The notes: generated by a model from the letters alone, not told the origin. DNA of 64,000 bases from an uncultured Bacteroidaceae bacterium (GCA_964599875.1 CAZRHE010000007.1:3536-67535); one strand, 5' to 3'; shown: positions 24,469 to 28,628, numbered from the stretch's first letter. A program made the numbers and translations.

Positions 24469-25989
24469 TTATACTTGCTTTTTTGTATATCCTATTTGTT
24501 TTCCATCAACGTCTTTTAATTTTAGTTCCAATATACCGTCTTGACTTAATTTAAACTTGGCTTCAATACGATATGATTTTGATTTTTTCTTCTCGTAATA
24601 TTTGCTAGGAACGTCAACAACAACTTTCATCCCATTTTTTTCGCCGTTTTCCAATTTCGACCAATGATCTAATGAATCAGACTCGTATACAGTAAAACCA
24701 ACATTCTTCTGATCATTCTTAAGCGGATAGTAACTTACATAATCAGTTTCAATTACGCCGGCACTAAATAACGTTCCTTTATATAATATATTGTTTATCA
24801 TGTCTTTGTCTTGATGCCTATTATAGCAATCAACACCATATGTATGCGATGCCGTATTAACAAATTCTCCCGTTGCTATTTTGTTGTCAAGAACCATTTT
24901 CGCATAGATTGCCGCGCCTCTTGCGATTGCTCTTGAAGGATCCCCTATCAGTATATTGTCTCCTCCTATATGTCCGCCAAATTCCGTAATCATTCTGTTT
25001 TTTATTTGAGGCATATTACTTCCACCGCCAGTAAGAACAATCTTATCAATCCTGCCGTCATATGAAGACAGTGTCCTACGAACAACACTTATAGCACTAT
25101 CTAGCAAGGAATTTGAAACACTTTCAAATTCTTCCCTAGAAACTTTGCAACCGACGAAATCACCGTCCCACTGCATCATGAAATCTTCACTTTCGTTTGT
25201 GCTTAAACTAATCTTTAAATCGGTAATTTTATTATTAAAAGTTATCTCTTCTACACCAATAGGATTTGATCTATCTATTTTTCTTAACACTAGGCTCTTC
25301 AATGCATTATCCCAGTCATTACCACCCAAGTTAGAGTCTCCCTCTTTTGCGCATACTCTAAATGACTGATTTTCAGAATCGTATTTCACGATAGAAACGT
25401 CTAACGTTCCACCGCCCAAATCAAAAACCAATACGGTTTGATTGCGAGACATATCGCCTCTCGCCTGTAAATAGGATATTGCACCAGCAACCGGTTCCTC
25501 CAAAACGTACACTTTATCGTCACTCAAGCCAGTAATTTCTTTAACAGTTCTTTTTAACAGAGCATTGTATTCCGTAGCAAGCATCTGCCCATTAGCAATG
25601 CCAACAGGAGCCGTTATTGCCACAGCCTCCACCACAGTTTGATTGATTATATCAAAATCTTGTTGTACGCCCGCAATCGTTTTTCTAATTATGCTATCCA
25701 AAAATCCTTTTAATATGTGACTTGCAGAAAAGGACTTATCGCCGATTGATATAGTTTCCCGATTTATTTGCGTTGGATTCTCGCGTATTATTTTTTTAAT
25801 ATACTTGATTACCTCTCTCTCATTTCTACAATCAAAGCCATATTTTGGCTGACCACTTGAATATCCAAATACAGTTGGCACTCCGCTATCACATCCAGGT
25901 ATATGATTACATTTCACCAAATTATCGTCTTCATTGTTTTTTACTGCTATCAATGAAAAACAAGTCCCAAAATCAATTCCCAATATCAT
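24469..25989 (-). CDS. atypical Hsp70-family ATPase (nucleotide-binding domain plus beta-sandwich substrate-binding domain, no helical lid)
   Basis: MILGIDFGTCFS (phosphate-1), VLVFDLGGGTLDVSIV (phosphate-2), LEEPVAGAISY and IVLTGGGSNMPQI (adenosine motif). The C-terminus YRIEAKFKLSQDGILELKLKDVDGKQ resembles the end of the DnaK SBD-beta (IEVTFDIDANGIL..). ATG 25989 is preceded by AAGGAAGG; the track start at 26022 is upstream and less likely. Confidence 0.85.
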   Translation of the reverse strand: MILGIDFGTCFSLIAVKNNEDDNLVKCNHIPGCDSGVPTVFGYSSGQPKYGFDCRNEREVIKYIKKIIRENPTQINRETISIGDKSFSASHILKGFLDSIIRKTIAGVQQDFDIINQTVVEAVAITAPVGIANGQMLATEYNALLKRTVKEITGLSDDKVYVLEEPVAGAISYLQARGDMSRNQTVLVFDLGGGTLDVSIVKYDSENQSFRVCAKEGDSNLGGNDWDNALKSLVLRKIDRSNPIGVEEITFNNKITDLKISLSTNESEDFMMQWDGDFVGCKVSREEFESVSNSLLDSAISVVRRTLSSYDGRIDKIVLTGGGSNMPQIKNRMITEFGGHIGGDNILIGDPSRAIARGAAIYAKMVLDNKIATGEFVNTASHTYGVDCYNRHQDKDMINNILYKGTLFSAGVIETDYVSYYPLKNDQKNVGFTVYESDSLDHWSKLENGEKNGMKVVVDVPSKYYEKKKSKSYRIEAKFKLSQDGILELKLKDVDGKQIGYTKKQV

Positions 25990-26008
25990 TTGTTTTACCT
26001 TCCTTTTT

Positions 26009-27040
26009 TTAATTAAGTTCATTCATAAATAATATAGTGCGAAACTTATTATTCTCAAAACGCTCGATTGTGAGCAAATATCTATTATTTTTATAGTATA
26101 TTCCCCAAGATACATATCCGTCAAACAATATAGGCTGACTTTTTATTTTGCCAAATGTTATTGTATATTTTTTAGGATAACAATTAGGTATATCAATTTT
26201 ATATGGAGTGTCTATTTTGATAGCCTTTCCTGGATTCGACAAAGGCACAAAGGCTTCGTCCTTTTCATTGCGAAGTTCAAGTTTGCTATTAAGACATATC
26301 GTCCCATCATCCAAAACGGAAATATCGCTATTTCTTTCAGAGTATTGTTTAGGCATAAAATTGGGCCTAACATTATTATCGTTTCTATTTTTCACATAAG
26401 GGACTTCATTATCTCTTACTTGACTATTAATTTGTCTAACTTCACTATATCGATATACCTGTACTTCTTCTTCAATAGTTTCATCATCGAACGTACATCC
26501 CATACAATCAACGTGAGCCACCGCATTATCAAGCGATTTATCGTTGATGTCAATCCAATTTGCGACTTTTATGAGCTCTTTATCATTATCACTAATAATT
26601 TTCCCAGAACCGTGCCAGTTTAACTGAACTCCTATTTTTTCTAACCTTTCAAATATTTCTTTCATACCATTCCTAACCAGATCATGTAAGGCTTGAAAAT
26701 CTTTACATTCTATAACTGCGTTCATTATGTCAGACAGTGGCGATAAAATGCTTTTCATTACATCATGCACTTGTATTCTACTTTGACTCTTTTTCCAAAA
26801 ATCTTCCAATCTATTTGTTCTTTCCAAAAACCGAATCAATTCTTGTCTAAAATCGCCATATGCCGCGTCAACTTTTTCTAATGACGGGAAATACTTGCCG
26901 ACGTTCGTATTAGGAACCTCTTCTAAAACAACTGAATCACAAAATTCGTTTGTTTCTTTTTTCAAATCACTATACTCATCCATTTTTTTACTCCTTTTCT
27001 TAATCCTTACTTTTTTGCTTATGCTTTTCTTTCTACACAT
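26009..27040 (-). CDS. hypothetical protein; the N-terminal half looks GrpE-like by eye, the C-terminal ~130 aa is beta-rich and unknown
   Basis: AT-rich ORF. ATG 27040 is preceded by GAGGAGG; an alternative ATG at 26983 is preceded by AAAGGAG; the track start at 27061 is TTG. The segment ILSPLSDIMNAVIE..NGMKEIFERLEKIGVQLNWHGSGKIISDNDKELIKV parallels E. coli GrpE [52 protein letters not shown]. Confidence 0.7.
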   Translation of the reverse strand: MCRKKSISKKVRIKKRSKKMDEYSDLKKETNEFCDSVVLEEVPNTNVGKYFPSLEKVDAAYGDFRQELIRFLERTNRLEDFWKKSQSRIQVHDVMKSILSPLSDIMNAVIECKDFQALHDLVRNGMKEIFERLEKIGVQLNWHGSGKIISDNDKELIKVANWIDINDKSLDNAVAHVDCMGCTFDDETIEEEVQVYRYSEVRQINSQVRDNEVPYVKNRNDNNVRPNFMPKQYSERNSDISVLDDGTICLNSKLELRNEKDEAFVPLSNPGKAIKIDTPYKIDIPNCYPKKYTITFGKIKSQPILFDGYVSWGIYYKNNRYLLTIERFENNKFRTILFMNELN

Positions 27041-27053
27041 CTTTTGTGCCTCC

Positions 27054-27632
27054 TCAATCAAGTAAATATTGTTTCAATTCTCTCATATAATTTAAGATAT
27101 CACACGTGATTCTATCTTTCACGGCATTGCTTATATTGTTTCGCGCGTTTTCAATTTCATCAAGTTGCGAATCTAGCTCTTGTTTTTTTTGAATTATTGC
27201 ATATTTAAGAGCTTCATACAAGTTTATTATCTCATCAACTTCTGCTTGTTTATAACCTCGATTGAAGACATTTGAAAGATTATCAACAAAACGTCTAACT
27301 CTGCGAGGCAATTTGCTTGATTCAAATTTATTTATTGTATTCTCTAATTTGTCGCATATCATCTCGGGATCATCATCAACAAACTTAATTGTCTTATTGC
27401 TTATATCGCGGCGCTTTTTATTGAACAAATCTCGTTTAATATCTTCAATCATTAGCGTTGCTTTGTTTTGCAATTTGTCATACTCTTTTGCTTTATAATC
27501 ATCCAGCAGCTTACTTCTTTCACTATCAATTCTATTTTCTTCACTACGAAAATAAAACTCGGCACATTCCACCAAATTCTTTTCCTTTTCCGAAATATAT
27601 GTTAAAATTGTTTCTAAATTATACTCAGCCAT
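27054..27632 (-). CDS. hypothetical helix-rich (coiled-coil-like) protein
   Basis: AT-rich ORF with K/E/D/N-rich heptad-like sequence. ATG 27632 (MAEYNLE..) is preceded by GGTGA; the track start at 27677 is TTG and abuts the upstream stop. No family recognised. Confidence 0.6.
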   Translation of the reverse strand: MAEYNLETILTYISEKEKNLVECAEFYFRSEENRIDSERSKLLDDYKAKEYDKLQNKATLMIEDIKRDLFNKKRRDISNKTIKFVDDDPEMICDKLENTINKFESSKLPRRVRRFVDNLSNVFNRGYKQAEVDEIINLYEALKYAIIQKKQELDSQLDEIENARNNISNAVKDRITCDILNYMRELKQYLLD

Positions 27633-27677
27633 AATTTCACCGTCTACGTTCACTAAACCGACAAAAGAATTAAGCAA

Positions 27678-28268: not shown

Positions 28269-28335
28269 ATCCTTCCCCACCCCTAAACAATTTTACGCAA
28301 GTGTGCCCAAAGCGATAATTCACTTTAGTGAACTC

Positions 28336-28364
28336 ATAATAGCATATCAAAACATTAAAGTCAA
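28336..28364 (-). promoter_or_regulatory. near-consensus sigma-A promoter of the four-gene Hsp70-like operon
   Basis: Minus strand reads TTGACT (28364-28359), 17 nt, TATTAT (28341-28336), with TGC immediately upstream of the -10 (extended -10). Confidence 0.7.
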
Positions 28365-28367
28365 TGC

Positions 28368-28404
28368 ACTATAGTAAATTTATCGCAAAATTATTTACTA
28401 TAGT
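28368..28404. promoter_or_regulatory. perfect 12-bp inverted repeat (candidate XRE operator)
   Basis: ACTATAGTAAAT (28368-28379), 13-nt spacer, ATTTACTATAGT (28393-28404). It sits directly upstream of the operon -35 and ends 14 nt before the XRE gene ATG. Confidence 0.65.
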
Positions 28405-28418
28405 TTATCGTTTTATTT

Positions 28419-28628
28419 ATGAAAAACTGTTTCCCGCAAAGACTGAAAGAATTGCTGAAATTCGAGAATATTTCACAAAAAGAGTTCGCGCTCAAAGTCG
28501 GCGTGTCGCAATCTTGCGTTACGTTTTGGCTGAAAGGCGAGCGTCAACCCACGGCGGAAAACATTTATTCCATATCAAAGGCTTATTCAGTGTCGTCCGA
28601 CTATCTTTTGGGGCTGGACGAATTCTGA
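28419..28628 (+). CDS. XRE-family helix-turn-helix transcriptional regulator
   Basis: 69 aa: QRLKELLKFENISQKEFALKVGVSQSCVTFWLKGERQPTAENIYSISKAYSVSSDYLLG is a classic Cro/C1 HTH. No Shine-Dalgarno is visible upstream, so it may be leaderless or weakly translated. Confidence 0.8.
   Translation: MKNCFPQRLKELLKFENISQKEFALKVGVSQSCVTFWLKGERQPTAENIYSISKAYSVSSDYLLGLDEF

Follow-up and report, generated by a model that had tools for sequence, protein, structure and literature searches.

Hsp70s are usually regarded as universal housekeeping chaperones that work with a fixed set of helpers. Among the described systems closest to the locus studied here, the GAP1-N2 GTPase conflict systems of Firmicutes and Actinobacteria include HSP70 and GrpE genes; they are defined by the GAP1-N2 GTPase and by an FNIII-repeat protein fused to DnaJ or to tetratricopeptide repeats (TPR), and they sometimes carry extra Hsp70 paralogues (Kaur, Burroughs, Iyer, Aravind 2020, PMC7159879). 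A paper that covers both the Hsp70-like CnuD and the EssC-like ATPases treats WXG100 proteins and a soluble EssC-like ATPase of coiled-coil type as an accessory to Type III-A CoCoNuT, and possibly as a mobile cassette in its own right (PMC11090510). Against this background, we analyzed a four-gene operon in a 64,000-nucleotide stretch of DNA from an uncultured Bacteroidaceae bacterium (GCA_964599875.1, CAZRHE010000007.1:3536-67535; the whole stretch is hereafter called the window, and positions are counted from its first letter). The four minus-strand genes, labeled A, B, C, and D in the order of transcription, encode two helical proteins, a GrpE-like protein, and a lidless Hsp70, and they lie together with a divergent XRE regulator between tyrS and a NifU-like operon. 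Our preferred reading, to which we assign a probability of roughly 0.55, is that the locus holds an accessory module which was gained by horizontal transfer, is probably XRE-controlled, encodes a private Hsp70 machine, and represents a reduced form of an apparently undescribed cassette family.

The preliminary description of this DNA, made from the sequence alone, had taken the architecture for a candidate undescribed system. A search of the full text of open-access papers and bioRxiv preprints found no description of the cassette family that combines B, a GrpE-like protein, and this Hsp70 (a description elsewhere is possible), and in this sense the claim stands; as regards an Hsp70 with its own GrpE, the GAP1-N2 systems provide a precedent. 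The cassette system of the island therefore appears to be undescribed as such, while dedicated Hsp70/GrpE pairs in conflict operons are already known.

The comparison with known systems reveals partial likeness in each case. Like the DnaK-GrpE-DnaJ machinery, the island encodes an Hsp70 ATPase domain with the same catalytic residues, a linker, a beta substrate-binding domain, and an adjacent GrpE-fold factor; unlike that machinery, its Hsp70 is lidless and ~20-25% identical to DnaK, no J-protein or HrcA accompanies it, its GrpE carries an extra C-terminal beta domain, two helical partners are added, and its composition is foreign and its distribution patchy. With the GAP1-N2 systems it shares a dedicated Hsp70 and GrpE pair within a predicted conflict operon, but it has no GAP1-N2 GTPase (A, B, and C have no GTPase match), no FNIII-repeat protein fused to DnaJ or TPR occurs among A-D, and its neighbors are tyrS and the XRE and NifU-like genes. 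The soluble EssC-like/WXG100 cassettes are resembled by sister cassettes of the island, which encode an ATPase free of transmembrane segments with a long N-terminal coiled coil, WXG100-like proteins, and toxins, and A of the window matches the coiled-coil region of that ATPase; the published description, however, does not include the triad of B, GrpE-like protein, and Hsp70. Membership in CoCoNuT was considered and dropped, with tyrS and the XRE/NifU-like genes as flanks and no McrB/McrC family match in A-D. A type VIIb secretion (T7SSb)/LXG locus differs in that the window has no EssC ATPase domain, WXG100 protein, or LXG toxin, and only A resembles the N terminus of the ATPase. The toxin-antitoxin-chaperone (TAC) systems are alike only by analogy, since the sister cassettes likewise encode a chaperone of their own alongside a toxin and a neutralizer, but the TAC chaperone is SecB-like and without homology to D, and the window has no toxin/antitoxin pair. 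Finally, component B of the PADLOC system PDC-M61 is likewise an Hsp70/actin-fold ATPase flagged in a candidate defense system, whereas its match covers only part of D, within one ATPase subdomain, and extends to no partner.

Profile, alignment, and model evidence shows D (24469-25989, minus strand, 506 aa) to be a lidless Hsp70 that has a beta substrate-binding domain and is predicted to be competent as an ATPase, as had been proposed from the sequence. The protein scores 107.8 bits against Pfam HSP70 (gathering cut-off 20.6) over profile positions 130-484 of 599, and it comprises a nucleotide-binding domain (~1-367), a linker, and the beta part of the substrate-binding domain (376-506). When aligned to the DnaK ATPase domain (1dkg_D), the catalytic and phosphate-binding residues D6, K65, E165, D190, and T195, which are invariant among 24 relatives, are the equivalents of DnaK D8, K70, E171, and D194/T199; two further invariant cysteines in the same alignment, one within IDFGTC and the other C54, are specific to the family. 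These assignments were further strengthened by an AlphaFold2 (AF2) model (mean predicted local distance difference test [pLDDT] 88, predicted template-modeling score [pTM] 0.83), in which the ATPase domain, the linker, and the beta domain extend to residue 506, and whose best Foldseek matches are DnaK and BiP (query TM-score [TMq] 0.66-0.75, ~550 columns including the beta substrate-binding domain). The alpha-helical lid is missing: the chain ends at residue 506, and the model has no C-terminal helices. D falls below the NCBIfam equivalog cut-offs for DnaK (104.6 bits vs 648) and for HscA, its best NCBIfam match (122 bits vs 708).

The partner C (26009-27040, minus strand) consists of a GrpE-like region (~50-200), a disordered linker (203-236), and a beta-rich C-terminal domain (240-343), and the GrpE-like segment claimed for it is borne out by three lines of evidence. 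C itself does not match Pfam GrpE; its homologues, for which a word-indexed search gave no hit and an exhaustive HMMER search gave 19 relatives, do so in 7/20 cases (best E 5.5e-6), GrpE being the only Pfam family matched by several of them, and two relatives that were scored individually reached 19-22 bits, under the cut-off of 25.8. A profile of the core region of the family matches the PDB GrpE 4ani in register (E 0.004). In the AF2 model of C, helices at 52-135 and strands at 139-198 reproduce the long helix, helical pair, and beta domain of GrpE, and the top eight PDB matches found by Foldseek are all GrpE or GrpEL1 (probability 1.0, E 3e-4 to 9e-3). Taken together, profiles and model show C to be a predicted dedicated GrpE-type nucleotide exchange factor of D with an added beta domain; that C exchanges nucleotide on D is backed solely by strict gene adjacency (15/15 loci). 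The added domain (window positions 26009-26323) is confidently modeled (pLDDT ~90). It bears a faint structural likeness to Hsp70/Hsp110 beta domains (probability 0.2-0.57) and to a closterovirus Hsp70 homologue, too faint for an identity as an Hsp70/Hsp110-type domain to be claimed. Among C-type proteins, this C-terminal domain is restricted to the cassette types with the ATPase coiled coil or, in its place, the free fragment A, which are also the types in which B is conserved. One protein of the C family, P0138 (809 aa), joins the GrpE-like N terminus to a DNA polymerase I-like C terminus and may be a fusion or an assembly artifact.

A and B had been described as helical proteins that could not be placed. 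Both are acidic proteins in which K/E/D/N make up ~40% of the residues; they lack transmembrane segments and the HPD motif, and neither matches a family in Pfam, NCBIfam, PADLOC, or PHROGs, so that this description stands in part; A, however, was found to correspond to the N-terminal region of the EssC-like ATPase. Specifically, A (27678-28268, minus strand, 196 aa) aligns with ~100-280 of the N-terminal coiled coil of the ATPase by hhalign (probability 87%, E 3.7e-6, 162 columns) with the common motif EWY..E.EN.NY, while controls gave 1.8% for the reversed sequence, at most 1.3% for 20 column shuffles, and at most 1.9% for four other helical families from the same loci. The only full-length relative of A is L005_a207 (36-37% identity). 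These profile comparisons show A to be a likely derivative of the N-terminal helical region of the soluble coiled-coil EssC-like ATPase of the sister cassettes. B (27054-27632, minus strand, 192 aa, or 207 aa if read from TTG 27677) is K/E/D/N-rich and in every case lies directly upstream of the GrpE-like gene, and by BLASTP it matches positionally equivalent genes in other loci (L095_g209, 3e-20; L093_g206, 2e-15; L092_g218, 5e-13) with the conserved motif F-E-K-x-x-L-P...Y-G-Q-A-E-V-D. The recurrence of this motif and position shows B to be a conserved, predicted helical third partner. Its homology to the shorter protein that takes the same position in ATPase-only cassettes (Bs) is unproven at an hhalign probability of 14%. 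No nuclease, protease, TIR, transmembrane, or integrase signature and no HPD motif was found in A-D, in agreement with the preliminary description, and no J-domain open reading frame (ORF) was detected in the window or in any family locus by a small hidden Markov model (HMM), which was built on three E. coli J-domains and has limited sensitivity.

The genomic context of relatives was read in ~45 non-redundant metagenomic loci (numbered L, as are the contigs of relatives), with genes classified by HMMs built from those loci. When contigs were scanned with a profile of the whole Hsp70, ordinary DnaK genes dominated the matches and no locus of use emerged, whereas a scan with the N-terminal part only, which contains the family motif IDFGTC[FY]S, succeeded on metagenome contigs. 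The family so defined consists of Hsp70s of ~520 aa, and the few named members are annotated as Clostridia metagenome-assembled genomes. In all 15 of the 15 informative loci (non-redundant, with at least 800 bp on either side of the Hsp70), a GrpE-like gene adjoins the Hsp70 gene, upstream in some and downstream in others. Five architectures were distinguished. Type I cassettes encode an EssC-like ATPase, a 202-aa protein, three WXG100-like proteins (79-97 aa), a toxin, a small gene in the immunity position, B, the GrpE-like protein, and the Hsp70; type II cassettes encode the EssC-like ATPase, a short helical protein, the GrpE-like protein, and the Hsp70. Type III, in which A-B-C-D and the XRE gene lie beside tyrS, was met in the window and in L005/L006 only. 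In type IV, the Hsp70/GrpE-like pair occurs with a DEAD helicase or a membrane zinc-ribbon protein, and in type V, a CARF3-type CARF-winged helix-turn-helix regulator is divergent from the Hsp70 and GrpE-like genes, with a HEPN_Swt1/MkoA-like helicase and Sel1-repeat proteins nearby. The order B, GrpE-like protein with the C-terminal domain, and IDFGTC[FY]S Hsp70 was met in the window and at the 3' end of six type I loci (L092, L093, L094, L095, L097, and L102). The four-gene neighborhood, whose recurrence had been proposed as a check, therefore does not recur in its exact form in unrelated genomes; what recurs is the C-D pair and the B-C-D triad.

The EssC-like ATPases of the cassettes measure 1251-1300 aa and contain a single Walker A motif; their N-terminal part forms a coiled coil of ~400 aa, and they are free of transmembrane segments. 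The T7SSb membrane components EsaA, EssA, and EssB were absent from all loci seen. The type I toxins combine a conserved, helical, LXG-like N terminus with a variable C terminus, which was assigned to Gln_amidase or Peptidase_C39_2, both over the Pfam cut-offs. D is 42-43% identical to the Hsp70s of the ATPase cassettes (types I and II) versus 32-38% to those of the CARF/helicase type, and tblastn with queries from the sister cassettes found no homologue of the EssC-like ATPase, the WXG-like proteins, or the toxin in the 64-kb window. Because A matches the helical region of the ATPase, D is closest to types I and II, and the window lacks the ATPase, WXG, and toxin genes, we concluded from these sequence comparisons that the window operon is best read as a reduced derivative of a type I/II cassette, which would have kept the triad and a free-standing helical region of the ATPase.

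Several type I cassettes adjoin type IV secretion genes of conjugative elements. The toxin cassettes of L093 (10567-15208), L094 (6192-14685), L097, L100, and L118 end just ahead of a conserved gene for a 77-aa protein, which by eye has the look of a putative ribbon-helix-helix protein, and past them follow a TraG/VirD4-like coupling protein, a pilin, a VirB4-like ATPase, and a DNA methylase; in L093, a serine recombinase lies at the opposite end of the cassette. Flanked in this way by the coupling protein, pilin, and VirB4-like ATPase, the toxin-type cassettes would ride on conjugative elements. The phage and plasmid collections gave only DnaK and HscC at ~25% identity to the family, and IMG/VR gave one distant match; carriage of the Hsp70 family by phages or plasmids is thus unsupported, save for the conjugative-element context of some cassettes. 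In an ATPase-type cassette (L087, 9525-11786), the family Hsp70 is immediately followed by four tandem HslV/proteasome-beta-like paralogues (179-196 aa), whose N termini differ from the usual Thr. Three to four Hsp70 paralogues lie in tandem in L004 (4899-13345), L125 (2806-10538), and L137/L145; in L004, a 539-aa GrpE-like protein is encoded among them and a Sel1-repeat protein ahead of them. The type V arrangement recurs in L089 (3562-10495), L098, L105, L110, and L004, where the helicase is MkoA-like (Mokosh-type) and carries a fused HEPN_Swt1 domain; both the CARF3-type regulator (E 8e-47) and the helicase (E 5e-33) are matched, and the combination of CARF, Hsp70, GrpE-like, and HEPN-helicase genes looks like a candidate defense system in its own right. 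NYN and other defense-type genes also lie beside some relatives.

Within the window, the operon is a real, well-delimited, and horizontally acquired unit. The four minus-strand ORFs and the divergent XRE gene were confirmed between tyrS and the NifU-like operon, with intergenic gaps of 13-45 nt within A-D and start codons backed by ribosome-binding sites: GGGGAAGG upstream of the A ATG (28268), GGTGA upstream of the B ATG (27632), GAGGAGG upstream of the C ATG (27040), and AAGGAAGG upstream of the D ATG (25989). The foreign composition that had been reported from hand counts extends over the whole unit: the G+C content (GC) of the island is 0.335 versus 0.482 for the remainder of the window, the sliding GC dips to 0.30-0.38 over 24250-28500 versus 0.45-0.56 on both flanks, and GC at third codon positions (GC3) is 0.28-0.31 in A-D versus 0.51-0.63 in nine host genes.

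The near-consensus sigma-70-type promoter at 28336-28364 (minus strand; TTGACT, 17 nt, TATTAT, with an extended TG) is a consensus match whose hexamers were confirmed, and both hexamers are kept in L005/L006, the sole orthologous locus, while the surrounding sequence has diverged; the promoter scan by itself is weak evidence because it gave 30 promoter-like sites versus 19.8 expected in this AT-rich stretch. At the other end, the terminator that had been noted after the operon was found as the GC-rich hairpin GGCCTC-CGCA-GAGGTC (24439-24454), which has T-rich tracts on both sides and lies 15 nt past the stop codon of D. This likely operon terminator is a consensus match only; the scan placed the hairpin on the plus strand, and its minus-strand reading is followed by TTTTCTTTTT. 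No T-box or other Rfam element was found between the operon and tyrS. The divergent gene (28419-28628, plus strand) encodes a 69-aa XRE/Cro-type helix-turn-helix regulator, as recognized earlier (Pfam HTH_3, E 7e-13; NCBIfam RstR-type repressor, 2e-11), and its GC3 of 0.54 is host-like and unlike that of the A-D cargo. Between the operon -35 hexamer and the XRE start, a perfect 12-nt inverted repeat (ACTATAGTAAAT at 28368-28379 and ATTTACTATAGT at 28393-28404, 13 nt apart) is a candidate XRE operator.

The accessory status of the island, which the preliminary description had proposed to check by presence and absence in related strains, was supported. It occurs in the lineage of L005/L006, the only orthologous locus, whose TyrS is 97.7% identical to that of the window over 174 aa; in L153-L158, whose TyrS is 89-91% identical, the XRE gene and A-D are wholly absent, so that regulator and island are present together and gone together. 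In L153, the NifU-like/GGGtGRT operon abuts tyrS over a 411-bp gap in the opposite relative orientation, and this orientation and junction place the island at a rearrangement point. When window positions 20779-30588 are compared with L153 5792-9572, the NifU-like/GGGtGRT block is inverted relative to tyrS, which marks a synteny breakpoint; in the same comparison, an ilvE-like gene (21370-22431) is extra in the window, between a yigZ-like gene and recX.

Between the window and L005/L006, the cargo has diverged far more than its flank: identity is 58% for D, 34% for C, and 37% for A, and the nonsynonymous divergence (dN) is 0.34-0.60 for the cargo versus 0.013 for tyrS. A, C, and D are intact in both lineages, and the ratio of nonsynonymous to synonymous divergence (dN/dS) is ~0.16 for D and ~0.29 for C, with dS saturated; since synonymous sites are saturated, these ratios do not separate fast evolution in place from replacement by a distant allele. 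Intact ORFs and ratios well below 1 for C and D, albeit at saturated dS, suggest that the cargo is under constraint. Although 31 nucleotides differ, the XRE orthologue agrees with the window protein at 68/69 codons.

A working model of the module can be outlined as follows. XRE would repress the operon through the palindrome in the common control region. D is predicted to alternate between ATP and ADP states and to be reset by C through nucleotide exchange, and its lidless beta domain may grip extended segments of helical or coiled-coil clients, of which A, B, and the C-terminal domain of C are the likeliest clients or adaptors. Three elements co-vary across the cassette types, namely B, the ATPase coiled coil (or A), and the C-terminal domain of C, and they may interact as adaptor or client; as no J-protein is encoded, either a partner or the DnaJ of the host would have to stimulate D. 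The proposed role is the handling, gating, or assembly of helical conflict proteins, either in toxin deployment or in defense against mobile elements. We infer such a role in inter-genome conflict because polymorphic toxins, conjugative elements, CARF regulators, and HEPN/MkoA-like helicases occur in the loci of relatives, and because the island shows foreign composition, patchy distribution, and fast divergence. Having lost the ATPase and toxin genes, the window copy may use partners encoded elsewhere or may itself be a minimal chaperone-adaptor unit.

Several observations weigh against this interpretation. Its main weakness is that no effector, toxin, nuclease, or membrane protein was found in the window version, and the conflict role rests on guilt by association across ~40 metagenomic loci. 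The exact A-B-C-D form is known from two close lineages only. In L005/L006, B is cut to 71 aa, which could mean decay, and codon 31 of the XRE orthologue (L005 ~203-412, minus strand, and L006) reads TAA instead of CAA in both contigs, which would be either a recent repressor knock-out or an unexplained read-through. Neither PADLOC nor PHROGs has a model that A, B, or C matches, and the only match of D in PADLOC-DB v2 is weak and generic (PDC-M61B, 34.6 bits, residues 172-342), other members of the D family scoring 16-19 bits against the same model.

Two alternatives deserve some weight. The operon might be a self-contained anti-phage system of the abortive-infection type, in which the lidless Hsp70 senses a phage protein or a disturbance of proteostasis and A and/or B act as the effector, for instance as toxic coiled-coil assemblies upon release. 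A foreign island under an XRE repressor, a cargo diverging fast between conserved flanks, the proximity of relatives to CARF, HEPN/MkoA-like helicase, NYN, and other defense-type genes, and the presence of Hsp70-like proteins in PADLOC candidate systems all agree with it. We nevertheless regard it as unlikely, although as the strongest of the alternatives: Pfam, NCBIfam, PADLOC, and PHROGs reveal no recognizable effector domain in A or B, no validated defense family is matched, the nearest relatives of D belong to toxin/EssC-like cassettes and not to the defense-island type, and the phage and plasmid collections hold no relatives that would hint at an arms race with mobile elements. Slightly less probable still, the operon could be what is left of a larger EssC-like/toxin cassette that is decaying and no longer functions. 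The window lacks the ATPase domains, the WXG-like genes, the toxin, and the immunity-position gene of the sister cassettes, A resembles a left-over N-terminal fragment of the ATPase, and the short B and interrupted XRE gene of L005/L006 would fit decay; yet the window retains four intact ORFs with good ribosome-binding sites, a promoter, and a terminator, the catalytic residues of D are intact, and A, C, and D remain intact in a second lineage from which the synonymous divergence is saturated, the dN/dS of C and of D lying well below 1.

The two remaining explanations concern D itself and were found to be very improbable. D could be a specialized housekeeping chaperone, for instance an Hsp70 of the HscA kind that assists iron-sulfur cluster assembly on the neighboring NifU-like scaffold; its best NCBIfam match and the NifU-like gene 240 bp past the XRE gene might speak for this. 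The HscA score lies far below its cut-off, however, the small J-domain HMM found no HscB-type J-protein, NifU is a neighbor at no other family locus, and the codon usage is foreign; the pattern of presence and absence largely refutes this role, as L153-L158 keep the NifU-like/GGGtGRT operon without the island. The least probable explanation is an actin-like filament or segregation system of the ParM/MreB type, not a chaperone: the weak Pfam and NCBIfam matches of D to MreB, ParM, and FtsA, which could be taken for it along with the coiled-coil partners, are far weaker than the Hsp70 match, the model of D superposes on full DnaK including the beta substrate-binding domain, and a GrpE-fold partner is specific to Hsp70s. 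Returning to the preferred reading of a reduced cassette, we take the window form to be a conflict-associated chaperone module that is probably still functional.

A broader and more tentative proposal, which we consider possible but doubtful, is that gut Clostridia possess a new class of chaperone-gated conflict systems whose core consists of the lidless Hsp70, the GrpE-like protein with its added beta domain, and B, and in which the ATP-driven Hsp70 cycle would arm, deliver, or release helical toxins and defense effectors. Depending on the form, this core would be coupled to the soluble EssC-like ATPase, to HEPN helicases under CARF control, or to a free coiled-coil adaptor, the last being the case of the window. 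If this were true, the class would be an Hsp70-based, J-protein-free counterpart of the TAC systems.

These findings matter for how Hsp70s are viewed, as a divergent lidless Hsp70 with its private GrpE would form a mobile module whose partners swap between toxin-export-like ATPases, polymorphic toxins, CARF/HEPN-helicase genes, and proteasome-like genes. Should conflict proteins be gated or delivered by the module, Hsp70 would count among the few chaperones that serve directly in bacterial conflict, a natural Hsp70 cycle free of J-protein and lid would be at hand, and the soluble EssC-like/WXG100 cassettes would become easier to study. The window copy, as the smallest form, with four small soluble proteins and a repressor, offers a convenient biochemical entry point. 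Elsewhere in the window, far from the island, a tRNA-Leu(CAA) on the minus strand (42760-42847) is the sole RNA gene detected.

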